A stretch of 64,000 nucleotides of DNA from an uncultured Bacilli bacterium (GTDB lineage: Bacteria; Bacillota_I; Bacilli_A; RF39; UBA660): contig CAKPHU010000005.1 in NCBI GenBank assembly GCA_934162125.1, positions 64,528-128,527 on the forward strand, given 5' to 3'. Position numbers and translations under genes: made by a program. How positions within the stretch are numbered: the first letter of the stretch is position 1; every line of letters starts with the position of its first letter. The notes below the pieces were generated by a model. It searched no databases and was not told the DNA's origin. It saw nothing but the letters and a program-made list of their open reading frames with translations. Shown here piece after piece: positions 3,331 through 52,748 of this stretch.

Positions 3331-3358
3331 TAAAAAAAAAGAAGCGAACTTCTTTTTA
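3331..3358 (-). terminator. Small rho-independent hairpin (AGAAG-cgaa-CTTCT) with a flanking A/T run, between gap and pgk
   Basis: Stem-loop at 3340-3353. On the minus strand it is followed by a 9-U run, immediately after the gap stop codon. Probably a partial terminator or attenuator of gap readthrough. Confidence 0.4.
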
Positions 3359-18139: not shown

Positions 18140-18436
18140 TTAGTTATTGAATGTTTGAGCAACGTCTTTATCAGTATCGATATTTCTATTAGTAACTTCA
18201 GCAATATGATTTACCATTGCGATTACTTTATCATAGAATACTTGATAATTCTTTCTTAGCTCTTCATAACGTCCATTTGAAACGTCTGCTCCAGAACTTT
18301 GCCAATTTTCTCCAAATAATTCTGTCATGCTTCTATCAACGTTATTAAATATTTCTAACATATCGTTAGCATCTGATTGAATAGTTGTTGCTAAAGAATA
18401 TGCTTGTTCATAATCTTTCTCTTCAAATTCGTTCAT
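18140..18436 (-). CDS. WXG100/ESAT-6-like small helical protein (paralog of 44274-44570)
   Basis: 98 aa, helix-turn-helix sized, with ENWQSSGA near the centre. Alignable to the 44274 ORF. Confidence 0.55.
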   Translation of the reverse strand: MNEFEEKDYEQAYSLATTIQSDANDMLEIFNNVDRSMTELFGENWQSSGADVSNGRYEELRKNYQVFYDKVIAMVNHIAEVTNRNIDTDKDVAQTFNN

Positions 18437-18446
18437 ACTTTACCTC

Positions 18447-18749
18447 CTAATCAAATAAATTTTGAGCACGAACTGTTGATTCTTGTTCATTTTCATCAAA
18501 TCTTTGTGCACCACTCATTATTTTTTCACCAAATTCGTTTAATAATTCTTTAAACTCATTTAAGTTTTGAACTTGATTATCTACTTGAGTACTGAATTCA
18601 GTAGCAGCTGGTCCTCTCCAAATTTCCATTAAACTTTCTTTATGAGATTTTAAATCAGTTATTTTGCCATTAAATTCTTCTGCATCTCTTACTGTTGAAT
18701 TTCCATTGTCATACATATCATTAGTATTAACTTTTAAACCGTTTTGCAT
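18447..18749 (-). CDS. WXG100 family protein (EsxA-like; paralog of 44570-44878)
   Basis: 100 aa with the canonical central motif EIWRGPAATEF (W-x-G...A..F). Confidence 0.7.
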   Translation of the reverse strand: MQNGLKVNTNDMYDNGNSTVRDAEEFNGKITDLKSHKESLMEIWRGPAATEFSTQVDNQVQNLNEFKELLNEFGEKIMSGAQRFDENEQESTVRAQNLFD

Positions 18750-18825
18750 AATTAACCTCCTATCATTAATTACATTTTAGCATAGTATTTTTTTTAATTA
18801 AAGTTTTTTAACGTTTGTTTACATA

Positions 18826-19746
18826 TTATTCGCCAACAAAATAAGTTTTCCATAAGTATTGAGCATCTTTAACTGTTGGAGCGTTATTAATTAAGTCTTT
18901 TACTAGTAGAGCTTGTGAATTTGTATAGCCAGATCCTTCAGTCATTTCAGCAATGGCAAAGTCCATTTGAACATCTACATTACTTGGATCAAGACCTTTT
19001 TCCTCTGCAAATTTAAATAGATTTGCTTTTCTTTCATCGTTCCATTTAAAGATTCCGTATCCATTACCATTTTCAGCAATTGTGGAAGTAACATTAGTAC
19101 CATCTTTAGCTTCATTGATAATACCTTTGATAGCTTGATCTGTGAAACCATTTTCTCCGAACTTATTAGTAATATTAGATTCAACTGTACTATCAATTGT
19201 AGTGTCTGTTCCAATTGGAGTTGTAACTTCTCCTGGATCGTCAGCATCATCTTCTGGTTCTGGTGTTGTATCTGGTTCAGAATAATCAGAGCCTCCAGCG
19301 TCTCCTCCAGAGTAACTTCCTCCAGATGATCCACCATAGCTACCACCTGAAGAACCACTATAACCACCGCTTGAGCTATCATAATAACCATCTGATGTAG
19401 CAGTACTATCAGCATTTACACCATCTGTTGCTTCTGTCTCTAGAGCAGTTTCTGCTTCGCTGATATAATCTTCGAATTTAAATACCATTGAACTTTGTAA
19501 GTCTTCTTGGGTATTCATTACATCAGTTATAAAACTAGATGCAGCTTTTACTTTTTGACCAGCCATAGAAATGTTATTTGCTATAGCTTGAGCAGCACCT
19601 CTGAAATTAAATTCAGCACTATCGATTGCATTAGCAGCTACAGAAGTAGCTAGTTCATCAAATTGACTAGAAAGGCTTTCTAATCCAGTTACTGCCTCTG
19701 TTAATTTTTGTGAATCCGTTTTAAAAATATTTCCCAACAATGACAT
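18826..19746 (-). CDS. Modular effector-like protein: WXG/LXG-type helical N-domain, Gly/Ser-rich linker, and a C-terminal phage-tail-lysozyme-like (Phage_lysozyme2-type) cell-wall hydrolase domain
   Basis: 306 aa. Helical N-terminus, then (GGYSGSSGGSYGGSSGG) low complexity, then a C-terminus GIFKWNDERKANLFKFAEEKG...MDFAIAEMTEGSGY resembling the GLFQWN-type lysozyme domain. Confidence 0.55.
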   Translation of the reverse strand: MSLLGNIFKTDSQKLTEAVTGLESLSSQFDELATSVAANAIDSAEFNFRGAAQAIANNISMAGQKVKAASSFITDVMNTQEDLQSSMVFKFEDYISEAETALETEATDGVNADSTATSDGYYDSSSGGYSGSSGGSYGGSSGGSYSGGDAGGSDYSEPDTTPEPEDDADDPGEVTTPIGTDTTIDSTVESNITNKFGENGFTDQAIKGIINEAKDGTNVTSTIAENGNGYGIFKWNDERKANLFKFAEEKGLDPSNVDVQMDFAIAEMTEGSGYTNSQALLVKDLINNAPTVKDAQYLWKTYFVGE

Positions 19747-19768
19747 AATACTTTCCCCTTTCTATCTT

Positions 19769-20071
19769 TTAAACACCATCTATATTTGTTCCAACTTCAT
19801 TATCCGTTTTAGCATATTCGGTAGCCGTATCTTTTAAATAATTTGAGAAGTTAGTTAAATCAGCAACATCTTCTAGAATTCCACCAATATCTTCTTGCCA
19901 TGCTTCTACTAGGCTATCAGCTGCTTTTCCTGATAATAGATTATTGTTATAAATATTACTTAACTCTGTATTTGCATTTTGAAGCATAGTATTTAATTTT
20001 TCTTTACTAGATTCAATTGTACTTGCTCCCTTATCAAAAAGAGAATAATCTTTTGCTTCGAAATCAGTCAT
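19769..20071 (-). CDS. LXG/WXG-like small helical protein. Homologous to the N-terminal domain of the 46199-47008 protein.
   Basis: 100 aa. NLLSGKAADSLVEAWQ aligns with VFMGPVAEECVNLI of 46199-47008, an (L/F)xG motif. Confidence 0.5.
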   Translation of the reverse strand: MTDFEAKDYSLFDKGASTIESSKEKLNTMLQNANTELSNIYNNNLLSGKAADSLVEAWQEDIGGILEDVADLTNFSNYLKDTATEYAKTDNEVGTNIDGV

Positions 20072-20081
20072 CTTATCACCT

Positions 20082-20369
20082 CTATATTCTTTTGGCAGCT
20101 AATGCTTTATCTGCTTCCTCGATTTTATCTGCTAGTTTGTTTAAATAAATAGACATAGCTTCGATTTTCAAAATTTTATCTTTTAATTGTGCATCTTTTT
20201 CAGTGTAAGAATTACTAAATGCTTCTTTGGCGATTCCATTCCAATCTGATGTATCGGCTGTTAATTCTGTTTTTCCTGCGTCTAAGTCAGCTTTAGCTTG
20301 GCGTGCTAGAGTATCTAATTGTTTTGCAGCTTGTCTTACTTCGTCAAAATGACATTCTATAACTGACAT
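20082..20369 (-). CDS. WXG100 family protein (paralog of 44966-45253)
   Basis: 95 aa. SDWNGIAKEAF canonical WxG motif. Good SD (GTGAGGG) upstream. First gene of cassette A. Confidence 0.7.
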   Translation of the reverse strand: MSVIECHFDEVRQAAKQLDTLARQAKADLDAGKTELTADTSDWNGIAKEAFSNSYTEKDAQLKDKILKIEAMSIYLNKLADKIEEADKALAAKRI

Positions 20370-20483: not shown

Positions 20484-20514
20484 TAAAAAAAGGCTCTTTA
20501 AAAGCCTTTTTTGT
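20484..20514 (-). terminator. Rho-independent terminator (bidirectional hairpin AAAGGCT-ctttaaa-AGCCTTT with flanking A and T runs)
   Basis: Perfect 7-bp stem at 20489-20510 overlapping the stop of the 20498-21478 gene. The U-run is on the minus strand. It separates that gene from cassette A. Confidence 0.5.
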
Positions 20515-21478: not shown

Positions 21479-21572
21479 AATAAATCTCCCTTGGACTTGT
21501 ATTATAACATAAATCTTTATTTATTACTTAATTTTATGTAAAAGAAAAAAAAGAATACTAAAAGATAGTATT

Positions 21573-23306: not shown

Positions 23307-23332
23307 ATTATTCACCTCTTTTTTCAAAATAA

Positions 23333-23358
23333 AAGAGATCACATAATAGTGACCTCTT
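23333..23358 (-). promoter_or_regulatory. Hairpin (AAGAGATCAC-ataata-GTGACCTCTT) between the small upstream ORF and the ABC exporter start. Possible attenuator.
   Basis: 9/10-bp inverted repeat followed on the minus strand by U-rich UUAUUUUG, located between the leader ORF stop (23371) and the ABC gene SD. Confidence 0.3.
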
Positions 23359-24758: not shown

Positions 24759-25657
24759 TAGATTTTTAAATACTTTCTAACGGCACTTGCACTACCAATC
24801 ATACCAACTAGAATTCCTATTACGATAACGATACCAGAAACAGTATAAATGAACGGTTCTGGTAAAATTAATTTAATTAATTCAGAGAATAAATAACCAT
24901 TAAAATGTTTATAGAATGTTAAGTAACCATAAGTTGTGAAGATAACTGGAACGATAGATCCTAGAAGACCTAATATCATACCTTCAACAATAAATGGTGT
25001 TTTGATAGTGAAGTTACTAGCACCAACTAAACGCATAATACCAATCTCACGTTTTCTAGCGGAGATTGTTAATTTAATTGTATTAACTATTAGGAAGATA
25101 GTAACAATAACTAGGGCTATTACAACTCCATAAGTTACTTTTTTAACAGAGTCAAAAGCACTAATTAGTTTTTCAACCATTCCTTCACCATATCTTACAA
25201 CAGAAACATTTTTAATCTTTTTAATTTTTTCTGCTGTCGCACCAATTTTATTAACATCTTTTACTTTAATTTGATAAGTATCTTTTAATGGACTTTCATC
25301 TTCTGGCCAGGTTTCTAATATTTTAGAAAAGACTTCTGATTCATCTTGCATTTGCTTTTTTACATCTGTTTTAGATTGAAATTCAATCTTTTCAATATTA
25401 GAAATATCTTCTAAATCACTTTTTACATCTTTGATTTGGGCTTCTGTAACATCGTTATCTAAGAAGACAACTATCGTTAAGTCTTTTTCTATTTCAGAAG
25501 TAAAGTTATTAACGTTGAAAGAAGCAATTATAGCAATTGCGACTATAACTAAAGTAATTGTAATACAACTTATAGAAGCAAGAGAAAGGCTAAAGTTTCT
25601 GATAACACTTTTGAAAGCATCACGGATACTACGCCCTAGCATTCTGAACAGCTTCAT
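24758..25657 (-). CDS. ftsX: Cell division ABC transporter permease FtsX
   Basis: 4-TM FtsX topology with a large extracellular loop. Start set at MKLFRM (25657), which has a strong AAAGGAGG SD. It overlaps the ftsE 3' end by 28 nt. The ORF-track start is 25687. Confidence 0.9.
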   Translation of the reverse strand: MKLFRMLGRSIRDAFKSVIRNFSLSLASISCITITLVIVAIAIIASFNVNNFTSEIEKDLTIVVFLDNDVTEAQIKDVKSDLEDISNIEKIEFQSKTDVKKQMQDESEVFSKILETWPEDESPLKDTYQIKVKDVNKIGATAEKIKKIKNVSVVRYGEGMVEKLISAFDSVKKVTYGVVIALVIVTIFLIVNTIKLTISARKREIGIMRLVGASNFTIKTPFIVEGMILGLLGSIVPVIFTTYGYLTFYKHFNGYLFSELIKLILPEPFIYTVSGIVIVIGILVGMIGSASAVRKYLKI

Positions 25658-26342
25658 CGTCGTAGCCTCCTTTCTCTTTAAAGGCAACTAGACGGCCTTC
25701 TTTTAAAATTAAGACTTGTTTTTTCATAGTGTTTACAATATCTTTATCATGAGTTGCCATAATAATAGTTGTTCCTCTTGTCTTATTAATATTGTCTAAT
25801 ACTTTCATAATCTCCATACTTTTTTCAGGGTCCAAGTTTCCAGTAGGCTCATCACAAAGTAGAAGTTTAGGATTGTTTACTATTGCTCTAGCGATAGCAA
25901 CACGCTGTTGTTCTCCACCTGATAATTGATCTGGATAATTGTGAACTTTGTTTTTTAAGCCAACTTCTTCTAGAGCTTTTAAAACTTTTTCTCTAATTTC
26001 ATCTTTTTTTGCTCCAATAACTTCAAGAGCAAAAGCTACGTTTTCATAAACTGTTAATTTAGGAAGTAATCGATAGTCTTGGAAAACAATTCCTAACTTA
26101 CGACGTAATTTATATACTTTTTTATCTTTTAACTTTGCAACGTCAAGCCCACCAACAATGATTTGTCCTTTAGTTGGTTTTTCTTCACGATAAAGCATTT
26201 TTATTAATGTTGATTTACCACTTCCAGATCCTCCTATTACAAATACAAAGGATCCTTTTTCAATGGCTATATTTAAATCATAAATAGCAGTTACACCATT
26301 TTTGTATTTCTTTTCGACATGTTTTATTCTGATTAAATCCAA
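25629..26342 (-). CDS. ftsE: Cell division ATP-binding protein FtsE
   Basis: 237 aa. Walker A GGSGSGKST, LSGGEQQRVAIARA and LLCDEPTGNLD motifs. Confidence 0.9.
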   Translation of the reverse strand: MDLIRIKHVEKKYKNGVTAIYDLNIAIEKGSFVFVIGGSGSGKSTLIKMLYREEKPTKGQIIVGGLDVAKLKDKKVYKLRRKLGIVFQDYRLLPKLTVYENVAFALEVIGAKKDEIREKVLKALEEVGLKNKVHNYPDQLSGGEQQRVAIARAIVNNPKLLLCDEPTGNLDPEKSMEIMKVLDNINKTRGTTIIMATHDKDIVNTMKKQVLILKEGRLVAFKEKGGYDDEAVQNARA

Positions 26343-41501: not shown

Positions 41502-41984
41502 TTAAAGTTTTTTAATATCTATATACATTCTGGCATGATAGTCTTTTTTCTCATAGAATTTTATGGCGTTTTCGTTGTAGGCAAAGACATCAACCATAGA
41601 GTACTCACAACCTTTACTTTTGAAGTACTCTTCCATTTTCTCCATAAGTTGTTGGCCTACACCTTTGCTTCTTATTTTACTACTAACTATTAATTCGGTA
41701 ACCTTGCCTCTTTTTGGGCATTTGTAATCTAAGTAGTCATATTCATCATAGGGAGGAATTGTTCCCATTATAAGTCCAATCACCTTATCATCTTCTAAGG
41801 CTAGAAAACATTTACCATCTTGTTCTGATACTTCTTTTAAATCCAGTAGAGCCTTTTTTTCATGATATTCTGGGTGGACATGATCGAGGTTATCTTTATC
41901 AATAGATACAATGTATTCTTCTAATTCAACTAATAAATCTCTAACATCTTCTAAATATTTATCATTATATTCTATTATTTTCAT
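41502..41984 (-). CDS. GNAT family N-acetyltransferase
   Basis: 160 aa. Acetyl-CoA binding motif RSKGVGQQLM. Confidence 0.7.
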   Translation of the reverse strand: MKIIEYNDKYLEDVRDLLVELEEYIVSIDKDNLDHVHPEYHEKKALLDLKEVSEQDGKCFLALEDDKVIGLIMGTIPPYDEYDYLDYKCPKRGKVTELIVSSKIRSKGVGQQLMEKMEEYFKSKGCEYSMVDVFAYNENAIKFYEKKDYHARMYIDIKKL

Positions 41985-41997
41985 ACTACTCTCCTGC

Positions 41998-42594
41998 TTA
42001 TTTTTTGATATCTATATATGGTTTGTATATTTCTGCGTACTTTTCTAAGCATTCTTTGACATCAAACCAGTAGACATTAGTTAATATTCCATCACTTGGA
42101 TCTATTTCTGTTCTTTCAAGGACACCACCTAAGGCTTTAAGTGTTTTATCAGATCCTAAATTATTAACGTCACAGTCTAACATTACACGTTTTAGTCCTA
42201 ATTTTTGAGCTTCAACTAGACCTAAATACAAATTTATTTTATTATAGCCTTTTCTTCTTTCTGTTGGTCTGATCGCATAGCCAATATGGCCACCAAATTG
42301 TTGCATACTTAAAGATAAGTTCCATCTAACATTAATCATGCCAACTACTTTATTGTCATTTTTCCTAATAAGAAGAAAGGTTTTGGCTGGACATCTATTT
42401 ATTTTTTTTGCATACTCTTCATTTTCTGTATTTAAACATCTTTCAAGAGCTTTTTCAAAAGACATATCAGTCAACACCTTATCTAAGGAACCAGAACCAT
42501 TTATGTCTGAATTGTATTCTACAAACTCGTTAAAATATTCTAATATGTCTTTTTTTCTTTCAAGTGATGGTCTTTCCAAATAAAACTTTTCCAT
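41998..42594 (-). CDS. GNAT family N-acetyltransferase (RimJ/RimL-like)
   Basis: 198 aa. RRKGYNKINLYLGL motif and a RimL-like length. Confidence 0.65.
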   Translation of the reverse strand: MEKFYLERPSLERKKDILEYFNEFVEYNSDINGSGSLDKVLTDMSFEKALERCLNTENEEYAKKINRCPAKTFLLIRKNDNKVVGMINVRWNLSLSMQQFGGHIGYAIRPTERRKGYNKINLYLGLVEAQKLGLKRVMLDCDVNNLGSDKTLKALGGVLERTEIDPSDGILTNVYWFDVKECLEKYAEIYKPYIDIKK

Positions 42595-42610
42595 ATATAT
42601 TCTCCTTTGA

Positions 42611-43027
42611 TTATTTTTTAATCCACAAATACATACCTGTTATCTTATCAGGTTTATATTTAAATCCGGCTTTTTGATAAAACCCTTCATTTCCTGCTGT
42701 TGGAGTTAATTCAATTTGCATTTTTTCTCCTGGTTTTACATTTGATTCAATCATTCCTTTTAATTTATTAACAATCATCAAGCCATAGCCTTTTCCTTGA
42801 TATTCTGGTCTTACACAAATGTCTGATAGACAACAAACTATACTGAAGTCACCCACAACACGACCTATTCCTACTGCTTTACCATCTACCATAACTTTTA
42901 CCATGTACATGGTGTTTTTTAGAGCTTTCTCAACTTGTTCTTTTGAATAACTTTTAAATCCTACAGACTCTATTACGTCTAAGAATTCTTCAATACTAAT
43001 ATTTTCTTCTAATATTACTTCACTCAT
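42611..43027 (-). CDS. GNAT family N-acetyltransferase
   Basis: 138 aa. QGKGYGLMIV motif. Confidence 0.7.
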   Translation of the reverse strand: MSEVILEENISIEEFLDVIESVGFKSYSKEQVEKALKNTMYMVKVMVDGKAVGIGRVVGDFSIVCCLSDICVRPEYQGKGYGLMIVNKLKGMIESNVKPGEKMQIELTPTAGNEGFYQKAGFKYKPDKITGMYLWIKK

Positions 43028-43078
43028 TTTCTTACTCCTATTTTTAACAACTTGTTTTAACTTGCTTTTATGATAATT

Positions 43079-44152
43079 TTATTTTAATATTTCAGTATTT
43101 ATAAAAATTCTTTTGTTATCATAGTCGATAGTTGCTTCGGCATCATAAGGTAGAAGACATCTTGGGACAGAATGTCCAAAATTTACGTTATATAAAATTG
43201 GCGTCTCTAAGTCTGAAAAAACCTTTTTATATACTTCTTTATATTCTTCATAATATTTTTCATCTATAGGTTTACCAACGATAAGTCCTTGAACTAAATT
43301 GAAAATATTTCTCTTTTTTAATTCCAAAAGCATTTTTTCAAGTTCCTTAGGAGTGGCAGCTACTTCACTAGTTTCTAAGAATAATATTTTTTCTTTCCAT
43401 TCATCTTCTGTTGGGAATATTTGATATTTTTCATACACTGATGCTTGATCTGCAAATCTTGTTCCCATAAATGATTCATATATACTTTCTACGCATCCTC
43501 CATATAGTTTTCCAGTTGCTGTTCCTTGACCATTTAAAGTTTCAAAACCATGTATTTCTTGATGAGATTCTCTTGGTATTCCAATCTCTTCTGGTCCATA
43601 ACTTTTTCTATCACTATACCAAACTGGGCTTGATTTTATTTCATAAGATTTTCCACCTGTAAAAAATTTTTCAAATTGGTCTTTAGTGTAAGGCAACATT
43701 TCATTATCTAACTCTGCTATATCAACTAATAAGCATGGTCCATAAAATGTAGATAGACCTATTTTATTTAACATTAAATGATTATTTGTAGTGTCAGAAA
43801 AGCCGGTGAAAATTTTAGGGTTGTTTTTAACAGCTTCAATAAACTCTGGATCATCCATTAGATAAGGTATTGTTTTATAAGTATCAATGCCACCTATTGC
43901 GGTTATGATAGCTTTTATACTAGGATCCATAAAAGCATCCTTTAAATCACTTGCTCTAGCTTCTGGGTGTTCTTCAATGTACTTCATATCTTTTAAAGCA
44001 TTAGGCATTATTACTGGTTCTAATCCATATTCTTTTAGTCTATCTAAAGCAATAGACAATTCATGTTTACAAAATGGCATTCCTAAAAGTCCTCTTGATA
44101 GACTAACGATAGCTATTTTGTCTCCCTTTTTCAATCTTTGTGGTTTTAACAT
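43079..44152 (-). CDS. S66 family serine peptidase (LD-carboxypeptidase / MccF-like)
   Basis: 357 aa. N-terminal LKKGDKIAIVSLS and the TGFSDTT Ser-nucleophile motif. Its size fits MccF-like rather than short LdcA. Confidence 0.7.
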   Translation of the reverse strand: MLKPQRLKKGDKIAIVSLSRGLLGMPFCKHELSIALDRLKEYGLEPVIMPNALKDMKYIEEHPEARASDLKDAFMDPSIKAIITAIGGIDTYKTIPYLMDDPEFIEAVKNNPKIFTGFSDTTNNHLMLNKIGLSTFYGPCLLVDIAELDNEMLPYTKDQFEKFFTGGKSYEIKSSPVWYSDRKSYGPEEIGIPRESHQEIHGFETLNGQGTATGKLYGGCVESIYESFMGTRFADQASVYEKYQIFPTEDEWKEKILFLETSEVAATPKELEKMLLELKKRNIFNLVQGLIVGKPIDEKYYEEYKEVYKKVFSDLETPILYNVNFGHSVPRCLLPYDAEATIDYDNKRIFINTEILK

Positions 44153-44273: not shown

Positions 44274-44570
44274 TTAGTTATCTATTTCAACAGCATTAGT
44301 AGCAGCAGCATCAGCAGCTTCATAAGTATTAGCAGCTTCATTGATTACTTTATTCATTTCTACTACTTGTTCATAGAATGCAGAGTATTTTTCATGAAAT
44401 TGTCTCATATAATCTGATTCAATATCACGAGCACCAATACTATTCCAGTGATCTGAAAATAAACCGTTCATAACTATATCTTCATTATCAAATACTTCTT
44501 TGATTTGATTTGCTAAATTTAAAATTTCATTTGCACTACTACGTGCTTGTTCATAATTATCTATTTGCAT
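44274..44570 (-). CDS. WXG100/ESAT-6-like small helical protein (paralog of 18140-18436)
   Basis: 98 aa with DHWNSIGA. Its SD is embedded in the end of the upstream gene. Last gene of cassette B. Confidence 0.55.
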   Translation of the reverse strand: MQIDNYEQARSSANEILNLANQIKEVFDNEDIVMNGLFSDHWNSIGARDIESDYMRQFHEKYSAFYEQVVEMNKVINEAANTYEAADAAATNAVEIDN

Positions 44571-44878
44571 TAAAAACCAATCCTTCCTGCACTACTTGCT
44601 ACGTCATTTTCAGCCTCTTCTAAGATGTTAGCTGCCCTTCCTAAACCTTCACCTAAATTAGCAACTTGCTCATTAAATGTATTTAACAATACAGCAAGAT
44701 CTTCATATGCAGCCATAAATTTTTCTCTACCACCACCAGATTTCCAGTTAGAGCCTAATTCATCAACTTTTGCTTTTAATGATGATAATTTTTCACGAAA
44801 TTCTTCTGAGTTTTCAATTGTTTCTCTACTGTTGCGGTTCATACCACCAAAATCAACTTGTAAACCATTTGTATTCAT
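44570..44878 (-). CDS. WXG100-like protein (paralog of 18447-18749)
   Basis: SNWKSGGG central motif. Start placed at MNTNGLQ (44878), preceded by an AGGAGG SD. The ORF-track start at 44905 appears to be a TTG. Confidence 0.6.
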   Translation of the reverse strand: MNTNGLQVDFGGMNRNSRETIENSEEFREKLSSLKAKVDELGSNWKSGGGREKFMAAYEDLAVLLNTFNEQVANLGEGLGRAANILEEAENDVASSAGRIGF

Positions 44879-44965: not shown

Positions 44966-45253
44966 CTAAATACTTAAACTTGCTAACTGATTTTCTAAAT
45001 CTTGGATACTTTTAGCAGATGATTTGATAAATTCACCAACTTCACTCATTTTTTCTGCTTTTGCAGTAGCTAGTTCAACTTGACTTGTACATTGAGCAGT
45101 AAAATTATTTTTAGCTTTTCCACTCCAAGCCGAAAGATCGCTTGTAACATTAGTATCATAATTTTGAATAGCTGTTTTTATATTGTTGGCAGCTGAACAT
45201 AACTTTTCTCCTGCTGCTATTACTTCAGCAAAATCACATACATATTTGGCCAT
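44966..45253 (-). CDS. WXG100 family protein (paralog of 20082-20369)
   Basis: 95 aa. SAWSGKAKNNF canonical WxG motif. AAAGGAG SD. Confidence 0.7.
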   Translation of the reverse strand: MAKYVCDFAEVIAAGEKLCSAANNIKTAIQNYDTNVTSDLSAWSGKAKNNFTAQCTSQVELATAKAEKMSEVGEFIKSSAKSIQDLENQLASLSI

Positions 45254-45267
45254 TGATAAACTCCTTT

Positions 45268-46188
45268 CTATATTTCGACTGTTTCATTTCCTGAACTTTG
45301 ATTATCAGTTGAGCTAGCTAAATTAGTTAATATAGTACTTTCATTTACTATTTTGTTAGCATTAAGGTCAAATTGTCCATTATTTGTAACAGTATATTTA
45401 GTCATATCAATATTTATATTATTTTCATTTTCACTATTCCAATTTTCATTAACGATAAAACTAACATTAGATTTAGCATTGTCAGTAGTAGGCTTTTCAA
45501 AACTGATACCAACAATACACTTAACTTCTTCACCATTATTGTTTTTGAAAATAATTTCATCACCAACTGTTCCGATTGATTCATTACATAAAACTACATA
45601 GTGATCGTCAATCATGGCGTAACCATTGCCATTATAGGTAACTTTATTTATATAGTCGTTCTTTAGCGAATCATCTAATTTATCTAAATTAATACCAACA
45701 TGATTTACTTCTTCAATTTTATCTGTAATAGCATTTTCATCTTTTTCTTTGTCTTCTGGCTCTGTGTTTGTTTCATCTAATCCCGAAATAGCACTAGCTA
45801 TTCCAGCTGCTATGCCTCCTGAAATTGTACTTGATGATCCTCCAGAGTAATAACTTCCTGAATAGCCTCCGCTTGATGAACTACTACTTGAATATCCACT
45901 ACTAGCAGTTTTATTAGTTTCTGTTTTGGCTAGCGTTAATGACTTTTGAAGGGAAGTGTGAGCACTAACTACATTATCAGCATAAATAGATGTATTTTTG
46001 AATTTTGTAACACAGGCTTCAACATTTGCGATCATTTGAGCTTTAACTGATGAGAAGTCAAAACCATCTTCACAACTTGTATCATAACCACTTATCGAAT
46101 CTACAACACTTGAGATTTGATTTGCTAAAGAATTTATTGTATTAGCTCCTGATATGACAGGATCACAATCTAACATAAATACACTCAT
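45268..46188 (-). CDS. Modular effector-like protein: WXG/LXG-type helical N-domain, Ser/Gly-rich linker, and a C-terminal beta-rich domain of unknown function
   Basis: 306 aa. Same architecture as 18826-19746, but the C-terminal domain (NGYAMIDDHYVVLCNESIGTVGDEIIFKNNNGEEVKCIVG...) has no motif I recognise. Confidence 0.5.
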   Translation of the reverse strand: MSVFMLDCDPVISGANTINSLANQISSVVDSISGYDTSCEDGFDFSSVKAQMIANVEACVTKFKNTSIYADNVVSAHTSLQKSLTLAKTETNKTASSGYSSSSSSSGGYSGSYYSGGSSSTISGGIAAGIASAISGLDETNTEPEDKEKDENAITDKIEEVNHVGINLDKLDDSLKNDYINKVTYNGNGYAMIDDHYVVLCNESIGTVGDEIIFKNNNGEEVKCIVGISFEKPTTDNAKSNVSFIVNENWNSENENNINIDMTKYTVTNNGQFDLNANKIVNESTILTNLASSTDNQSSGNETVEI

Positions 46189-46198
46189 ATATTATCTC

Positions 46199-47008
46199 CT
46201 ATTTTGGGTCCCATTGATCAAGACCATATTGTTCAACAATACTAATTAAATTTTCACTATAGGTTTGACTTGTTGCATAACCGCATTGTTTAACAGCGAC
46301 GCAAGCCTCCTTATAATTAGTAGCCTCTAAAACAGGCTTGTATCTGTCTTTAGTTAACAGTTCAGCATGATCAATAATAGAATCATTTACTGAATCATAA
46401 TCTCTGAAATCAGCACGTGTTTGATATCTAGTACCATCAGCATTTTGTTCTCCAGTTAAACAATTTACTCTTTTGCCAGTCCAACTACTACCAGCTTTAA
46501 TACCAAAAATATTGTTACCAATTCTTGATCTACCCCAACCTGTTTCTAGTATTGCTTGAGCAAGTGTTAAAGAAGGTAAAACTCCATATTTATTATAGGT
46601 TTCTATGGCACCAGCTTTGATTTCATTTACAAAGTCTAATCTGTAACCTGATAAGTTACCTGGATTTTTATAATCACTGTTGATTGCTGTTTGACTAACT
46701 CCATTAAGTTTTAATTGAACTGCTTGATTTGCTTCACTATCAGCATTTTTGTATGTTGCGGAAGCTGTAGTAAGAAAGTCTGCTATAGTTTTGAAATTTT
46801 CACCAATAGTATTTAGAGATGTATCCAATTCATTAATTAAATTAACACATTCTTCTGCTACTGGTCCCATGAAAACACTTTCGTTGCTAAGTTTGGTTAA
46901 GGAATCATTTAGGCTGGTATTACATTCAGTTACTTTGGAATTTGTTAAAGTAGTAGTAGATATTGCATTATTGAAAATGCCATAATCTGTAATTGAAACT
47001 TTATCCAT
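46199..47008 (-). CDS. LXG/WXG-like helical N-domain fused to a GH73 N-acetylglucosaminidase (FlgJ/mannosyl-glycoprotein endo-beta-N-acetylglucosaminidase-type) domain
   Basis: 269 aa. The N-terminus aligns with the 19769-20071 protein. The C-terminus carries LPSLTLAQAILETGWGRS, the GH73 consensus around the catalytic Glu. Confidence 0.7.
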   Translation of the reverse strand: MDKVSITDYGIFNNAISTTTLTNSKVTECNTSLNDSLTKLSNESVFMGPVAEECVNLINELDTSLNTIGENFKTIADFLTTASATYKNADSEANQAVQLKLNGVSQTAINSDYKNPGNLSGYRLDFVNEIKAGAIETYNKYGVLPSLTLAQAILETGWGRSRIGNNIFGIKAGSSWTGKRVNCLTGEQNADGTRYQTRADFRDYDSVNDSIIDHAELLTKDRYKPVLEATNYKEACVAVKQCGYATSQTYSENLISIVEQYGLDQWDPK

Positions 47009-47019
47009 TCTATCACTCC

Positions 47020-47916
47020 TTATTTATTTCCTTCATATCTTAAGTAACCATCCCATCCACTGCTATAAAATGGAACAACGTTTATTTCTTTACCAGTTGA
47101 ATCACCATCTTGGCCGTCTCTATCACCATGGGCTCCAATCATTTGTCCATCGCCTATATACATTTCGGTATGAGAATTTTCATCTAATAAAACGTCACCT
47201 GGTAATAGGTCTTCTGCTCTTGGTGTACCTGGATACCATGTAAATCCACATTGAGTAAATGATCTTTTCATATTTCCTGTGAATCCTGCTCCGGCTTCTT
47301 TAACCGGGATACCCGCATTTTCATAAGCATTGATGACAAAAGATGAACAGTCATAATTTGGATTACCATTTCTTGTCTTTTGTGAGTAACCGTGTGTGTC
47401 GTCATTGGCAATGTCAAAGGCCCAATTGATAGCATTTTGAATATATGGAGAACTCGATCTTATTGCATAAGAATTAGAACCAGATGTGCTTGTGGTACTA
47501 TCTCCATTGATACTAACAGTGGCTAATTTAACAGAGGCAGCACTCTGTAGTTGACTTTCAATTTGAGTTTTTAAAGTTTCCATTTCCGACTCGTAGCTAT
47601 TCATTTCAGAAAGATAACTACGGGCTGAACTTGTATTATTAGCAGCGTATGCAGTATTGTAGTTACTCTTAGCAATATTATATTTTGGTTTTAGTTCTTT
47701 ATATTTGGCATATAAATCACAGGCAGATGCAAAAGCTGTGAACTGAGTTTTTAAGCTACTTGCATATTCTGAACTAAAATCATTTGCTTTAGATGAAAAG
47801 TTATTATATGAGTTACCTTTCCATGATGAAGCAAGCTCATTTACGCAATTAGAATAATTTGTTATAGCTGAAGTAATACTACTTAAATCAGAATTAACTT
47901 GACTTCCACTTACCAT
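47020..47916 (-). CDS. WXG100-domain N-terminus fused to an NlpC/P60 cysteine peptidase domain
   Basis: N-terminal LASSWKGNSYNNF (W-x-G). C-terminal NYDCSSFVINAY...NSHTEMYIG (NlpC/P60 Cys and His). Start placed at the second ATG (47916), preceded by GGAGG. The ORF-track start is 47928. Confidence 0.7.
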   Translation of the reverse strand: MVSGSQVNSDLSSITSAITNYSNCVNELASSWKGNSYNNFSSKANDFSSEYASSLKTQFTAFASACDLYAKYKELKPKYNIAKSNYNTAYAANNTSSARSYLSEMNSYESEMETLKTQIESQLQSAASVKLATVSINGDSTTSTSGSNSYAIRSSSPYIQNAINWAFDIANDDTHGYSQKTRNGNPNYDCSSFVINAYENAGIPVKEAGAGFTGNMKRSFTQCGFTWYPGTPRAEDLLPGDVLLDENSHTEMYIGDGQMIGAHGDRDGQDGDSTGKEINVVPFYSSGWDGYLRYEGNK

Positions 47917-48059
47917 ATTTACCTCCATTTATTTTATCTTAATATTATTTTATCATTATAAATAAAGGAAAAACAATTTTATTTGTGAAAAGACAAGATG
48001 TTTACATTTTTTAGGACATAGTGCTTTCTCTATTATAAATTATTTTTGTTTTAAATATG

Positions 48060-48098
48060 AAAATAGAGCATTTTGTATGGATGCTCTATTTATTTTTA
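48060..48098. terminator. Bidirectional hairpin (ATAGAGCAT-N9-ATGCTCTAT) with flanking A and T runs
   Basis: 9-bp perfect stem at 48063-48089 followed by TTATTTTTA. Lies in the 420-bp AT-rich spacer between the LRR gene and cassette B. Confidence 0.4.
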
Positions 48099-48347: not shown

Positions 48348-49748
48348 TTACTCTTTAACAACTTCAATATCTCCATACCAGTTTTCGACGGTTCCATAAT
48401 CAAAATTAGCTTCTGATGGCCCTCCTGTTATTGATTTCCAGTCGAATTTTCTACCTGTTTTATTTACTATTTTTGTTAGAGAAGAATTGTAATTGTCATA
48501 AGTAATTTCTTTTCTAAAAGCATCCGTTCCTATACTTGTTACTGTTGAAGGAATGGTTAATGACCTTAGTTTGCAATTTCTGAAAGCATTATTCCCAATT
48601 TTTATCAATCCTTCAGGTAAAGTTACAGCTTTGATATTACTATAATAAAATGCTGAGTTAGAGATTGTTTTTACTTTTTCTGGAATTATTACATTGTCAG
48701 TTCCATATGCAGCATAACCTATTATATTTGTGTAATCAATTTTGCCATTGTTGTCTCTAGCATAAACGAAGCCAGGTACTAAATTACCATCACCATTGTC
48801 TACATATGTAACATAATTTAGCATAAAAGCGTTAGTTCCTATACTTGTTACTGTTGAAGGAATTTTTAACGTGCCAGTAAAATAGCTTACACCCAAAGCT
48901 CCACTGGCAATTGTTTTTAGTTTTACACCGTTTTTTTCTGCCGGAATAGTTACATCTTTCTTTTTAGCTCCAGCATAACCTACTAATGTACTATAATCTA
49001 TGCCGCTTGTAGTTCTTTTATATATCCATGCCTGACTATCATCTTGAACAGCATTTGTATTGAATGCTTGCCCTCCTAGTATTACTACGCTTTGAGGAAT
49101 TTTTAATTCTTTTATTTTGTTACTATAAAATGCACTACCGCCAATACTTATTACTCCGTTCGGAATATTTACTTTTGAAATACCATCAAAAGCAAAAGCA
49201 CTACTTTGAATATCAATAACAGTATCAGGTATTACAACTTCCCAGTCACTTAAAGACATTCGTTGAAAAGCTCCTGATTCAATAACTTTTAATTTCACAC
49301 CATTTATTTCTCCTGGTATTCTAAATACTTTATCTGGAAATTCTGATAAATCACCAATGTAACCTCTTATTCTAGTATAATCATACGAATCACCTTTTTT
49401 AACATATAAAAATGATGGGTTTGGGATTGGGTTGTTACAGTACGCGCACGCTCCTAGAGAAGTTACTGAATCGGGTATTATGGCTTCTGTCAATTGATTA
49501 TATTGAAATGCCGATGCTCCTATCGTTTTTATTCCTTCATCGTATGTTAAATCTTTTATTTTGTTATTAGCGAAAGCCCAGATTTTTATCTCTATTACAC
49601 TTGATGGAATATGTAGACTTTTAATGTTATTATTTTTAAATGATTCATTACCGATTTTTTTTATTGTGTCTGGGATATAAACACTAGTTATTCCCATGTT
49701 TCTAAATGTATAATTGTGAATAGAAGTCACTTCTCTATCACCTATCAT
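48348..49748 (-). CDS. BspA-type leucine-rich repeat (LRR_5) protein
   Basis: 466 aa made of repeated units of the type IP(D/S)(S/T)V(T/I)SIG..AF..N..(K/T). No N-terminal signal peptide. Its ATG overlaps the TGA of the upstream pilin gene (ATGA). Confidence 0.7.
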   Translation of the reverse strand: MIGDREVTSIHNYTFRNMGITSVYIPDTIKKIGNESFKNNNIKSLHIPSSVIEIKIWAFANNKIKDLTYDEGIKTIGASAFQYNQLTEAIIPDSVTSLGACAYCNNPIPNPSFLYVKKGDSYDYTRIRGYIGDLSEFPDKVFRIPGEINGVKLKVIESGAFQRMSLSDWEVVIPDTVIDIQSSAFAFDGISKVNIPNGVISIGGSAFYSNKIKELKIPQSVVILGGQAFNTNAVQDDSQAWIYKRTTSGIDYSTLVGYAGAKKKDVTIPAEKNGVKLKTIASGALGVSYFTGTLKIPSTVTSIGTNAFMLNYVTYVDNGDGNLVPGFVYARDNNGKIDYTNIIGYAAYGTDNVIIPEKVKTISNSAFYYSNIKAVTLPEGLIKIGNNAFRNCKLRSLTIPSTVTSIGTDAFRKEITYDNYNSSLTKIVNKTGRKFDWKSITGGPSEANFDYGTVENWYGDIEVVKE

Positions 49749-50377
49749 ACCTGGTATTGTAACATCTGTTCCACACTTTTTTTATAGTATGTAAGTTCTG
49801 CTTCCGAATCAGATAAATTTTTAAAACTAAAACATTTCTTAGCTTCTTCTTCGGTTAAACTGTGTCTAGCAGGAAGTATTTCAGTAACGCCATCTTTATT
49901 CATTACAGATATTATGTTCTTGCCTTTTATTGGTTGCCTATTATTTACGTACTTTCTGCCGAGATGAACATCTTGGGCAGTTATTGTTTTAGATGATTTT
50001 AAGTTTATTTTCCAACCAGTTTGATCACAACTTACCCAATAATAATCATTGGTACCATCTTTATTTAGTGTTATTACAACATATGCATCTAACCAGTCTG
50101 AAAAAGGGCTTTTTGTTATGTCACTATTATCATTTAACAAATTGTTTATATGAATATAATAGGTCGTATCATAATCATCAATTTTAAGTGTTTCATTTGT
50201 AACCATTGCATTAGCAGTGCTTACAAAACTAAGTGCATCTTGAACATATACTTTTGCCTTAGATTTATTAATAATACTACTTACAGATGGAATTGCTATT
50301 GCCATTAAAATTCCCATTATTACTATGACTGCTAGTAACTCTACTAGCGTAAAACCTTTTTTATTACTATACCACAT
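49745..50377 (-). CDS. Type IV pilin / pseudopilin-like protein with a class III (prepilin peptidase) signal
   Basis: MWYSNKKG|FTLVELLAVIVIMGILMAIAIP is the canonical prepilin leader, with G-F cleavage and methylation of F and Glu+5. 210 aa. Confidence 0.75.
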   Translation of the reverse strand: MWYSNKKGFTLVELLAVIVIMGILMAIAIPSVSSIINKSKAKVYVQDALSFVSTANAMVTNETLKIDDYDTTYYIHINNLLNDNSDITKSPFSDWLDAYVVITLNKDGTNDYYWVSCDQTGWKINLKSSKTITAQDVHLGRKYVNNRQPIKGKNIISVMNKDGVTEILPARHSLTEEEAKKCFSFKNLSDSEAELTYYKKSVEQMLQYQV

Positions 50378-50528: not shown

Positions 50529-52748
50529 ATGAATAGTAAAGAGAAGAAAGAAAATAATTATTTTAAATATTTAGATTTTATTAGAGTATTTGCTTGTATT
50601 GCAATACTTCTATATCATTTTGGTATATTGAAGGGTGGCTATTTGGCAGTATGTACTTTTTTTGTTCTTAGTGGCTTTTTATCTACCAATTCATTATTTA
50701 GTAAAGAAAAGATATCTTTAAAGGAATATTATCTTAATAAATTCTTTAGACTTTATTTACCATTAATAGTAGTTGTTTTTATTTCTATTGCGGCAACTTT
50801 TATTCTTAATAAGACATGGTTTAATTTGAAACCCGAAAGTACTTCGATTATACTGGGGTATAACAATTATTGGCAATTATCTTCAAATAATGATTATTTT
50901 GCAGGAACGCTTAATTCTCCTTTTATTCATTTATGGTATATTGCAATTTTACTTCAGTTTGATTTGATTTTTCCTTTTATATTTATGCTTTTTAAAAAAA
51001 TAGGTGATAAATTTAATAAGGTTATTCCAACAATTCTTCTTTCTATTATTACTCTTGCTAGTACTATTTATTTTTGGATTAGTGGAAATAATAATAGTTT
51101 AATGTTTACTTATTATAATACTTTAACAAGAGTATTTTCCTTGTTATTTGGTGTTCTAATTTGTTTTATTTACCATTACTATGGAGATATGATATTTAAG
51201 GAGTTAAAGAAAAATGTTCTTAGTAAAATTATTTTTTATTTATATATTCTAATTTTAACTGGACTATTTGTTTTTGTTGATTCTAATAGCAGTTTTATGT
51301 TTATTAGTATGATTTTAACTACTTTGATTTCTACAAGAATTATCTTATATAGTACTTTAATTAATAATAATTTACCTATTTTTGATAAAGTGATTAAATC
51401 TTTATCTAGTGTTAGTTATGAAGTTTATTTAGTTCAATACCCTATTATTTATTTATTTTTAAATTCTTCTATTAATATTTATCTTAAGTATGGGATTATG
51501 CTTATTTTAATTATTAGTATATCTTATTTATTACATTTCTGTATTTTTTCTCGTAAAAGTAAATGTAAGATTATTAGATATATTCTTTGTTTTATTATTT
51601 TGATTGCTGCTTCATATGGCGTTTATGTTTACTGTTTAAGTGAAGACTATACTGATGAAATGAATGCTTTAAGAGAACAAATGAATAGTAATCAGAAGCT
51701 GATGTCTAATCATAAAGAATCTTATTTATCAAATAAGAAAAAAGAAAATGATGATTGGAATGCTACACTTGAAGAACTTGACAACAATAAAAATAATCTT
51801 GGTAATGTTGTTACTAATTTACCGGTTGTTGGTATTGGGGATTCCGTTCTTCTCGGAGCAATTCCTAATTTATATAATGCTTTTCCTAATGGCTATTTTG
51901 ATGGAAAAGTTTCTAGAACAGCTTATGAAGCTAATCGTATTTTACTTGATTTAAAGAACAAAGGTGCTCTTGGTAATCCTATTGTATTTAATCTTGGTAC
52001 TAATGGAGATTGTCCATATGAGTGTAAGGTGGAGATTTTAAATACTTGTGGTGATAGAGATATCTTTTGGGTTAATACCGTTAATTATACTTATGTTAAT
52101 GATAGGCTTGCTAGCTTAGCAAATGAATTTCCTAACTTGCATATTATTGATTGGAATTCTATTTCTAAGGGTCATAGTGAGTATTTTGCTTATGATGGTG
52201 TACATCTTACTAGTACAGGTAGAGATGTTTTTACCAAAGCTATTTATGATAGTATTTATAATTTATATCTTGATAGATACAATAAGGAGAAAGATGAAAT
52301 TATTAATAAACATAATGATGATGTTATGAAAAAAGTTACTTTTTATGGTAATGACCTTCTTATTAATTTATTTGAAAATATTAAAGATGATTTTAGTGAT
52401 AGTAATTTTATTACTTTTAACGATGTTTCCTATGATGTTTTAATAAATAATCTTAAAAAAGATATTAACGATAATAATATTAATCATAAACTTGTTTTTC
52501 TTTTTGATAATAGTCTTGAACTAAATACTCTTGAATACGAGAATTTAATTAATCTATGTAAGGACTATGATATTTATATTGTTTCTTTAAATAAAGATAT
52601 TAATTCTAATTCTATTAAGGGTGATAATGTTAAAGTTATTGATTTTTATAAAGAAGAAAAAACGGTAATGATGCCTGATAACATTCATTTGAATGATAAT
52701 GGTAATAAGACTTTGGCCTCTATTCTTAAAGATACTGTTTATAATTAG
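50529..52748 (+). CDS. Acyltransferase-3 (OatA-like) membrane domain fused to an SGNH/GDSL hydrolase domain and a long C-terminal extension
   Basis: 739 aa. About 10 TM helices in the N-terminal 370 aa and VVGIGDSVLLGA (GDS motif) in the SGNH domain. Confidence 0.7.
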   Translation: MNSKEKKENNYFKYLDFIRVFACIAILLYHFGILKGGYLAVCTFFVLSGFLSTNSLFSKEKISLKEYYLNKFFRLYLPLIVVVFISIAATFILNKTWFNLKPESTSIILGYNNYWQLSSNNDYFAGTLNSPFIHLWYIAILLQFDLIFPFIFMLFKKIGDKFNKVIPTILLSIITLASTIYFWISGNNNSLMFTYYNTLTRVFSLLFGVLICFIYHYYGDMIFKELKKNVLSKIIFYLYILILTGLFVFVDSNSSFMFISMILTTLISTRIILYSTLINNNLPIFDKVIKSLSSVSYEVYLVQYPIIYLFLNSSINIYLKYGIMLILIISISYLLHFCIFSRKSKCKIIRYILCFIILIAASYGVYVYCLSEDYTDEMNALREQMNSNQKLMSNHKESYLSNKKKENDDWNATLEELDNNKNNLGNVVTNLPVVGIGDSVLLGAIPNLYNAFPNGYFDGKVSRTAYEANRILLDLKNKGALGNPIVFNLGTNGDCPYECKVEILNTCGDRDIFWVNTVNYTYVNDRLASLANEFPNLHIIDWNSISKGHSEYFAYDGVHLTSTGRDVFTKAIYDSIYNLYLDRYNKEKDEIINKHNDDVMKKVTFYGNDLLINLFENIKDDFSDSNFITFNDVSYDVLINNLKKDINDNNINHKLVFLFDNSLELNTLEYENLINLCKDYDIYIVSLNKDINSNSIKGDNVKVIDFYKEEKTVMMPDNIHLNDNGNKTLASILKDTVYN

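Follow-up and report, generated by a model that had tools for sequence, protein, structure and literature searches.

A WXG100-like helical module fused to an NlpC/P60 peptidoglycan hydrolase in an uncultured Bacilli bacterium: a candidate substrate of type VII secretion

How does a peptidoglycan hydrolase that carries no Sec signal peptide leave the cell? The question is raised by a gene at 47020..47916 on the minus strand of a 64,000-nucleotide stretch of DNA (hereafter the window) from an uncultured Bacilli bacterium of the RF39 lineage (assembly GCA_934162125.1, contig CAKPHU010000005.1, positions 64,528 to 128,527). The gene encodes a protein of 298 amino acids (aa) in which a helical N-terminal domain resembling the WXG100 proteins precedes an NlpC/P60 catalytic domain. 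Based on the current evidence, it is probable that this protein is a peptidoglycan hydrolase whose most likely exporter is a secretion system of type VIIb (T7SSb), which would recognise its WXG100-type N-domain.

As a mechanical open reading frame (ORF), the gene spans 47020..47928 and would encode 302 aa. Translation more likely starts from the ATG at 47916, because a GGAGG lies 7 nt upstream of it and public gene calls contain the exact 298-aa product, while the 302-aa version is absent from them. The same gene calls place the exact protein on 28 contigs and give its cluster at 90% identity or more 78 members. The features of the gene and its product are as follows.

47020..47916, minus strand: target gene, gene 1 of an operon; 298 aa with a WXG100-like N-domain, a linker and an NlpC/P60 hydrolase domain.
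47922..47926, minus strand: ribosome-binding site GGAGG, 7 nt upstream of ATG 47916, read from the sequence.
47521..47916, minus strand: N-terminal helical module, residues 1-132 (predicted local distance difference test score, pLDDT, 80-98 in the AlphaFold2, AF2, model; profile matches to EsxA and ESAT-6; hhalign; Foldseek matches to PPE proteins).
47815..47823, minus strand: W32-K-G34, the WxG turn between helices 1 and 2 (predicted loop 31-34; conservation).
47455..47520, minus strand: flexible linker rich in Ser, Thr and Gly, residues 133-154 (pLDDT <50; length-variable in the alignment).
47023..47454, minus strand: NlpC/P60 (ELLD, "endolysin-like") catalytic domain, residues 155-298 (Pfam, Foldseek, identity to phage lysins).
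47347..47349, minus strand: Cys190, catalytic, in NYDCSSFV; invariant, codon checked.
47170..47172, minus strand: His249, catalytic, in SHTEMY; invariant, codon checked.
47128..47130, minus strand: His263, in GAHGD, the probable third residue of the triad; invariant, codon checked.

The protein is almost certainly a two-domain fusion, in which a disordered linker joins a helical N-domain to an NlpC/P60 domain. In the AF2 model (mean pLDDT 84.2), helices at residues 4-30, 35-91 and 95-128 are followed by a disordered stretch (133-154) and then by an alpha/beta domain (157-298). Among 5.8 billion proteins searched, 181 homologues were found, mostly about 300 aa long, with 99-100% query coverage and 40-96% identity. 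When 50 full-length homologues (42-91% identity) were aligned, W32, G34, C190, H249 and H263 were all invariant, so the motifs that contain them are not due to chance. An original prediction, made from the sequence of the window, had proposed a gene at 47020-47916 encoding a single polypeptide with both domains. Its coordinates are right, given the GGAGG spacing and the 298-aa public gene calls, and its three quoted motifs are all present (LASSWKGNSYNNF at residues 28-40, NYDCSSFV at 187-194 and NSHTEMYIG at 247-255). AF2 likewise supports the two-domain layout on one polypeptide (1-132 and 155-298, with the linker at 133-154). The catalytic Cys and His assigned to the last two motifs are also borne out, C190 and H249 being invariant and the Pfam matches of their domain lying above cut-off.

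Specifically, Pfam places both ELLD (PF25309; 50.4 bits against a cut-off of 27, E 3e-13) and NLPC_P60 (PF00877; 26.4 bits against 23, E 7e-6) at about residues 175-263, with a further, weaker match to Amidase_5, and all 50 homologues match both ELLD and NLPC_P60. A literature search for the origin of the name ELLD yielded a single phage paper, which was unrelated. In the AF2 model C190 opens a helix at 190-200, as expected for a catalytic Cys at a helix N-terminus, and the spacing of C190, H249 and H263 fits the Cys-His-His triad of the NlpC/P60 family, in which His263 presumably supplies the third residue. The domain has a papain-like alpha/beta fold, for which Foldseek gives matches to Lys2972, an endolysin of a streptococcal phage (E 1.3e-4, rmsd 3.2 over 156 columns), and to the NlpC/P60 hydrolase Cg1735. 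Tail lysins and endolysins from phage genomes are 35-42% identical to the protein, over residues 152-298 only. For the whole model, the best Foldseek match is Cg1735, a hydrolase consisting of a coiled coil and an NlpC/P60 domain (E 4e-5). These matches mark the C-terminal domain as a genuine member of NlpC/P60 (ELLD), predicted to hydrolyse peptidoglycan.

The N-domain very probably belongs to the WXG100 superfamily, an assignment that draws on sequence comparison across its family. Pfam WXG100 (PF06013) is matched by 23 of the 50 full-length homologues at E<=0.01 and by 45 of 147 proteins that carry the N-module at E<=0.001 (best 3e-7), and the WxG is at least 90% conserved across these 147 carriers. 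A profile of residues 1-132 matches EsxA of S. aureus (2vs0, E 0.0017) and an ESAT-6-like protein (E 0.0028), with weaker matches to 4lws, Geobacillus EsxA (3zbh) and ESAT-6 itself; designed helical bundles score alongside EsxA and ESAT-6 in this search and are regarded as spurious. Aligned by hhalign, the N-domain matches the family of a free-standing WXG100 protein encoded three genes downstream (E 2e-5, probability 77%, 44 columns centred on the WxG), and the EsxA alignment likewise centres on this motif. That free-standing protein, called A below, is 33% identical to the N-domain over 43 aa in a local BLAST. Foldseek matches the N-domain to PPE41, PPE15 and PPE4, which are mycobacterial PPE proteins of type VII secretion systems (T7SSs).

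W32-K-G34 lies in the loop between the predicted helices 4-30 and 35-91, which form a helix-turn-helix hairpin. The domain, however, is not a plain 100-aa hairpin. It has a third helix (95-128) and about 130 aa, which places it between WXG100 and LXG domains in size. The WxG hairpin that had been read as the N-terminal domain lies within a longer three-helix domain, and the protein (298 aa, not a free-standing protein of about 100 aa) is best filed as a carrier of a WXG100-like domain and not as a WXG100 protein. Neither a Sec signal peptide nor a membrane-anchor stretch was found, the maximum Kyte-Doolittle(12) value across the family being 1.70.

The distribution of the N-domain marks it, on sequence grounds, as a dedicated and reusable module. 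Compared with 1.84 billion representatives, its profile matched only 279 proteins; in every one the match lies at residues 1 to about 132, and most of them are 290-470 aa long. At least ten domain families are attached to it, and these are almost exclusively cell wall hydrolases: NlpC/P60 (21), C39-like (14), CHAP (13), M23 (9), M15 (7), S9/esterase (6/5), phage lysozyme (3) and glucosaminidase (2), as well as Amidase_5 and NAGPA. No nuclease, deaminase or ADP-ribosyltransferase occurs among the C-domains of the carriers. The constant N-domain and variable C-domains are also seen within single loci, with paralogues bearing different C-domains side by side in related loci L007-L011. Two of these loci hold three to six hydrolase fusions in a row, whose N-modules are the same or alternate (L009 3828-6783 and L010 9977-15884), which suggests the tandem expansion of an effector set.

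Full-length relatives of the protein were found only in metagenome-assembled genomes (MAGs) of uncultured Bacilli, "Bacillales" or "Mollicutes" from gut and rumen. NCBI labels near-identical neighbouring proteins "MAG: Tenericutes/Mycoplasmatota bacterium", and the contigs come from metagenomes that include the human gut (Hadza). Clostridial homologues of the catalytic domain, among them those of Ruminococcus and Lachnospiraceae, start with Sec signal peptides. In the Bacilli MAGs, this position is occupied by the WXG module or by a second module with a YDTSC motif, which is also found in the third gene of the operon described below. From these comparisons, the N-domain looks like a swap for a Sec signal peptide.

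The genes beside the target are consistent with such a role. The target opens a six-gene operon on the minus strand, in which it is followed by two further wall-active enzymes with helical N-domains and then by three free-standing WXG100-type genes.

46199..47008, minus strand: gene 2, 269 aa, helical WXG100-like N-domain and glucosaminidase (FlgJ-type); 11-nt gap to the target, own GGAG.
45268..46188, minus strand: gene 3, 306 aa, helical hairpin N-domain, linker rich in Gly, Ser and Tyr and a beta domain of about 100 aa (alignment, AF2).
44966..45253, minus strand: WXG100 protein A, 95 aa, free-standing, with a WSG motif (Pfam WXG100 28.6 bits against 27.3; 14 orthologues).
44570..44878, minus strand: WXG100 protein B, 102 aa, free-standing (Pfam WXG100 3.9e-11, 43.5 bits; orthologue alignment).
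44274..44570, minus strand: WXG100-like protein C, 98 aa, free-standing (Pfam WXG100 2.7e-5, 24.8 bits, just below cut-off; 15 orthologues).

The first four genes are separated by gaps of 10-14 nt, the last two overlap by 1 nt (the start of protein C over the stop of protein B), and each gene has a GGAG-type ribosome-binding site. For protein B, an AGGAG site and the orthologue alignment favour ATG 44878 as the start, while the mechanical ORF starts at TTG 44905. The orthologues of protein C conserve W.S.GA and HIY.VT..NE.AD. Gene 2 matches Pfam Glucosaminidase at E 1.4e-33, and residues 8-94 of its N-domain match positions 5-89 of the 90 in NCBIfam WXG100_ESAT6, at a sub-threshold E of 7e-4. 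It is kept beside the target in 10 related loci. In gene 3, the hairpin loop has an invariant YDTSCEDGFDF in place of the WxG, and relatives have this N-module joined to NlpC/P60 or CHAP domains. Its C-domain has no Pfam match; D202 is at least 90% conserved and D210 invariant. The top Foldseek matches of this beta domain are to expansin, kiwellin and p97-N, and at E 0.03-0.1 they only weakly suggest a fold like that of a double-psi beta-barrel. The small domain precedes CHAP or NlpC/P60 domains in relatives.

The whole cluster, which comprises the target, the glucosaminidase fusion, the third enzyme and the three WXG100 genes, is kept in 11-15 related loci. Its genes diverge faster (34-61% identity) than those for the flanking LeuRS and FemAB (78-88%). 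In relatives, the clusters lie amid genes of wall synthesis (MurJ-like, FemAB, Mur ligase, VanY), and in many of them FemAB adjoins the cluster. FemAB was considered as an analogue of immunity, as for lysostaphin, and rejected, being a syntenic housekeeping protein that is 76-89% conserved and absent near the cluster of the window.

Two features lie in the region upstream of the operon.

48032..48061, minus strand: promoter-like site TTCATA-18-TATAAT in the 420-bp upstream intergenic region, a consensus match only.
48061..48091, no strand assigned: 13-bp palindromic stem-loop downstream of a leucine-rich repeat (LRR) gene, terminator-like on the plus strand in the scan.

Promoter-like sites in the 420-bp region are not more numerous than the shuffle expectation. 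The stem-loop, which reads aaatagagcatccatacaaaatgctctattttcatattt on the minus strand, may from its position terminate the upstream LRR gene, separating it from the operon. That gene encodes a 466-aa BspA-type LRR protein with no obvious signal peptide, and its start is overlapped by the gene of a type IV pilin-like protein (N_methyl, 210 aa; both within 48348-50377, minus strand). Still further upstream, 2.6 kb from the operon and on the opposite strand, 50529-52748 (plus) encodes a 739-aa protein with Acyl_transf_3 and GDSL/SGNH domains. We take this layout to be that of the OatA-type peptidoglycan O-acetyltransferases, and the protein could bear on self-protection. Immediately downstream of the WXG100 genes, 41502-44152 (minus) holds an S66 LD-carboxypeptidase gene, which has a promoter-like site to itself, and a run of three GNAT acetyltransferase genes, at the place where relatives have FemAB.

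A second, paralogous cluster lies elsewhere in the window.

18140..20369, minus strand: two WXG100 genes, a 306-aa fusion of a helical N-domain to Phage_lysozyme2 and two more WXG100 genes (Pfam; paralogy of the small proteins).

The fusion, at 18826-19746, consists of a helical N-domain, a linker rich in Gly and Ser and Phage_lysozyme2 (PF18013). Three of the four small proteins of this cluster pair by sequence with small proteins of the cluster at 44-48 kb, and with both clusters counted, six to seven WXG100 genes sit with the target in the window. Upstream of the second cluster, 20498-23342 (minus) encodes a 589-aa ABC exporter with transmembrane and ATPase parts and a 326-aa protein without a family match. 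At 23583-25687 (minus), an FtsX gene is followed by the gene for a PcsB-like coiled-coil M23 hydrolase. This hydrolase has a clear Sec signal peptide, so that Sec is the route by which the division hydrolase of the organism is exported. Otherwise the window consists of ordinary chromosomal genes (pgk, gap, uvrAB, whiA, ftsX and others), and its GC content is 29%. Just beyond the window is a Spo0A gene, and 2-9 kb past its high-coordinate end is a van-like cluster (L081 786-8010) with a two-component system, VanW, a D-Ala-D-Ala ligase family protein, VanY, an acyltransferase and alanine racemase.

A link to type VII secretion comes from related genomes. In locus L006, the cluster is directly followed by the gene for a 1542-aa protein with FHA and FtsK/SpoIIIE domains, which passes the NCBIfam equivalog for EssC (TIGR03928; 955 bits against 778). 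Six ORFs of 93-105 aa come after it. Its homologues from MAGs of Bacilli and Tenericutes are called "type VII secretion protein EssC" by NCBI. Another related genome, which shares 59-88% identity with the window in housekeeping proteins, has an EssC cassette of about 7 kb exactly between gap and pgk (L086 10001-16995). The cassette encodes EssC, a protein that we read as YukD-like, five proteins of about 100 aa and one of about 157 aa. The T7SS cassettes of the lineage (L086 10001-16995; L096 10001-16969; L083 10001-16999) share this content, namely EssC, a protein of 84-90 aa read as YukD/EsaB-like, five helical proteins of about 100 aa and one of about 150 aa. In other relatives (L083, L096, L098 and L006), the cassette is found at different chromosomal sites, so that it appears to move as a unit, and its absence from one site is no proof of loss. 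A BLAST of the ORFs from L083 (E<=1e-3), L086 and L096 (E<=1e-4) gave no link of their small proteins to the WXG100 genes of the window.

From the evidence in this lineage, we infer that T7SS-dependent export of the protein is fairly probable. By analogy with EsxA/EsxB, PE/PPE and LXG/Lap pairs, the N-domain would form a helical bundle with at least one of the small WXG100 partners or with the corresponding domain of an enzyme encoded beside it, and the EssC ATPase would export the resulting complex. Once outside the membrane, the NlpC/P60 domain, tethered by its linker, would cut the stem peptides of peptidoglycan as a gamma-D-Glu-diamino acid endopeptidase or an amidase. The enzymes may then form a secreted lytic effector set directed against the exposed peptidoglycan of neighbouring Gram-positive cells. 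This antagonistic role is favoured because the enzyme repertoires vary and the cluster genes diverge faster than their flanks, although its standing is about even with that of a self-directed role.

A broader form of this explanation is advanced more tentatively. The WXG100-type domain may have taken the place of the Sec signal across an entire toolkit of hydrolases (endopeptidase, glucosaminidase, lysozyme, CHAP, M23, M15 and the double-psi-barrel protein), which would be exported as mixed helical bundles and form a lytic complex with multiple activities. The enzymes would possibly pair with one another in the manner of EsxA and EsxB. The exporter would be an unusually minimal T7SS made up of EssC, the YukD-like protein and small helical proteins, in which EssA, EssB and EsaA are not recognisable.

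Several observations weigh against export by a T7SS. In a plain scan, the protein's own matches to PF06013 (E 0.038, 14.7 bits against 27.3) and to NCBIfam TIGR03930 (E 0.0089, 16.2 bits against 44.85) are sub-threshold, and LXG (PF04740) is absent among its Pfam matches at E<=1. Since this single-sequence match falls below threshold, the WXG100 assignment rests on family-level evidence. Failure of a domain scan to detect WXG100 had been named as a refutation of the original prediction, and taken strictly the scan of the protein itself goes against this part of it. The WXG100 domain is upheld instead by the homologues, the EsxA profile match and hhalign. Neither EssC nor another T7SS core gene was found in the 64-kb window, where all large ORFs were compared with Pfam, or in the 10 kb beyond either end, and the site of the EssC cassette in the related genome is empty here, with gap (3356-4357) and pgk (2114-3301) only 54 bp apart. 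No Pfam-recognisable EssA, EssB/YukC or EsaA/YueB was found near EssC in the relatives, and the T7SSb of the lineage may be unusually minimal or divergent. Moreover, no immunity-like gene occurs between or after the enzymes of the operon, and the 10-14 nt gaps leave no room for a cognate immunity ORF between the three enzyme genes. The T7-type secretion signal that had been proposed for the N-domain is consistent with the lack of a signal peptide and with the adjoining WXG100 genes; the missing EssC, both in the window with its 10-kb margins and at the syntenic site, counts against it.

The alternative that survives best accepts export by the same T7SS and directs the enzymes at the wall of the producer. 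They could open the peptidoglycan for the T7SS or its substrates, a role like that of EssH, or they could be ordinary autolysins rerouted through the T7SS. This alternative is somewhat less likely but serious, because there is no immunity gene in the operon and the cluster of relatives has wall-synthesis neighbours, in addition to lying beside EssC. All the C-domains found on the module are wall enzymes, with no toxin that acts in the cytoplasm, and the cluster is strongly conserved within the species, as its 78 members at 90% identity or more attest. The passage of T7SSb substrates through peptidoglycan is also open in the literature, and the hydrolases found in T7 loci are unexplained (PMC13492133). 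However, a hydrolase that needs the T7SS for its export is hardly required for the assembly of that same T7SS, and EssH has its own route. The organism also retains a Sec-dependent division hydrolase of the FtsX/PcsB type. Furthermore, the variation of the fused enzymes among relatives (one to six per locus, at least ten domain types) and a cluster divergence of 34-61%, against 78-88% for LeuRS and FemAB, look more like an effector arsenal.

It is improbable that the fusions are orphaned substrates, that is, relics of a lost EssC cassette that are not exported or are exported by another route. The empty gap-pgk site and the lack of EssC in the roughly 84 kb examined would agree with such a loss. 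Against it, both clusters, with eleven genes in all, are intact; they have ribosome-binding sites, and their catalytic and WxG residues are invariant. The exact protein also persists on its 28 contigs within the 78-member cluster. The mobility of the cassette among sites in relatives also means that its absence from one site says little.

Equally improbable is that the N-terminal helices are a regulatory coiled coil of the CwlO, PcsB, RipA/RipC or Cg1735 type, which would auto-inhibit the enzyme or dock on FtsEX or another partner and have no link to type VII secretion. The Foldseek match to Cg1735 (E 4e-5) is the best for the whole model, NCBIfam RipC is weakly matched (E 3.9e-5, 23 bits), and FtsX is encoded in the window. 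However, enzymes of the CwlO/PcsB/RipC type have signal peptides and the target family has none, the 23 bits for RipC compare with a cut-off of 425, and the FtsX of the window already has its PcsB-like partner, 20 kb from the target. A coiled coil would also leave the invariant WxG, the WXG100 and EsxA matches, the three WXG100 neighbours and the EssC of L006 unexplained.

Least probable of all is a phage endolysin or tail lysin captured in the chromosome and released by a holin or by lysis: the C-domain does match the Pfam "endolysin-like domain" and Amidase_5, shares 35-42% identity with phage tail lysins and endolysins and has a fold like that of Lys2972, and Phage_lysozyme2 occurs in the paralogous cluster, but the phage matches cover residues 152-298 only and leave the N-module without any, both clusters have chromosomal flanks without phage structural, integrase or holin genes, and the cluster is kept at chromosomal sites across genera. 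A hydrolase of a conjugative type IV secretion system (T4SS), similar to TcpG or CwlT with their glucosaminidase and NlpC/P60 domains, was rejected, as no T4SS genes lie nearby.

Export through a T7SS, the preferred explanation, can be set against systems already described. The original prediction had held that the architecture of the protein was not characterised. This is correct for experimental characterisation; it does not extend to a new category, since N-terminal WXG100 domains fused to large C-domains are known. EsxW of B. anthracis has an N-terminal WXG100 domain with a large C-terminal extension (PMC3297441), the PEST toxins of mycobacteriophages join an N-terminal WXG100 domain to a large C-domain (PMC10654092) and the LXG toxins join a helical N-domain to a larger C-domain (PMC10765036). 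The architecture is thus a variant of the known WXG- and LXG-fused effectors rather than a new category.

The LXG toxins with Lap or WXG100-like partners, such as TelA-C of S. intermedius and EsaD and TspA of S. aureus, offer the fullest comparison. Like the target, they consist of a helical N-terminal targeting domain and a variable C-terminal effector domain, and small helical partners are encoded in the same operon, which in this case are the three downstream WXG100-type genes conserved in relatives. Their N-module is likewise reused on many C-domains, they lack a signal peptide and their genes lie away from the T7SS core. In contrast, the target has no PF04740 match, and its N-domain has about 130 aa and a WxG turn, compared with about 200 aa in LXG. 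The partners follow three consecutive enzymes rather than preceding a single toxin, no immunity gene lies downstream, and the C-domains are all wall hydrolases or esterases, with no nuclease, NADase or pore former. The EsxW-type proteins and PEST toxins share with the target the WXG100 N-domain, the larger C-domain and a small WXG100 partner alongside, with which a heterodimer is predicted. However, their C-domains are of unknown function or are toxins with immunity proteins, while in the target locus an NlpC/P60 domain is accompanied by three partners and no immunity gene.

NlpC/P60 domains have been connected with toxin delivery before. A survey of polymorphic toxins from 2012 listed Tox-NlpC/P60 only with T6SS, PVC and TcdB-type delivery and not with T7SS (PMC3482391), and a study from 2026 counted NlpC/P60 with the most frequent toxin domains predicted for mycobacterial T7SSs, as predictions only (PMC13444075). 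These mycobacterial proteins and the secreted arabinanase EatA (PMC13444075) resemble the target in having an envelope-degrading enzyme on a T7SS targeting domain. They differ in belonging to the T7SSa of Actinobacteria and in their PE/PPE- or LXG-like N-domains, their length of 400-1000 aa and their immunity proteins. EssH is a CHAP hydrolase required for the T7SSb of S. aureus (PMC13059805). It is similar to the target as a papain-fold peptidoglycan hydrolase tied functionally to a T7SSb. Unlike the target, it is not a WXG fusion; it is described as secreted, as associating with the machine and as enabling the assembly of EsaA, and it is encoded by a single gene at the ess locus. Finally, Cg1735, RipA, RipC and CwlO share the order of a long helical N-domain and then NlpC/P60, but they are exported by Sec, regulated by FtsEX or other partners and have neither a WxG turn nor WXG100 neighbours.

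The T7SSb effectors that have been characterised comprise nucleases, NADases, toxins that depolarise membranes or form pores, lipases and a lipid II phosphatase. A peptidoglycan hydrolase was not found in the literature among the characterised T7SSb substrates. A review from 2026 treats the passage of T7SSb substrates across the thick wall as an open question and describes hydrolases in T7 loci that have no established link to secretion (PMC13492133). In the family described here, this link lies within the protein itself. About 280 sequence clusters carry the WXG-type module almost only on wall hydrolases, and in sister lineages the same catalytic domain is exported by way of a Sec signal peptide. 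The distribution of the N-module suggests an export route for wall-cutting enzymes. If export does depend on EssC, the family would provide a natural test system for T7 targeting signals with easily assayed cargo, a view of a stripped-down T7SS and candidate secreted lysins from abundant uncultured bacteria of the human gut. Should the more tentative explanation of a whole toolkit also be true, these enzymes would be the first class of T7SSb effectors to attack peptidoglycan itself, and they would bear directly on how T7SSb substrates pass the walls of Gram-positive bacteria.

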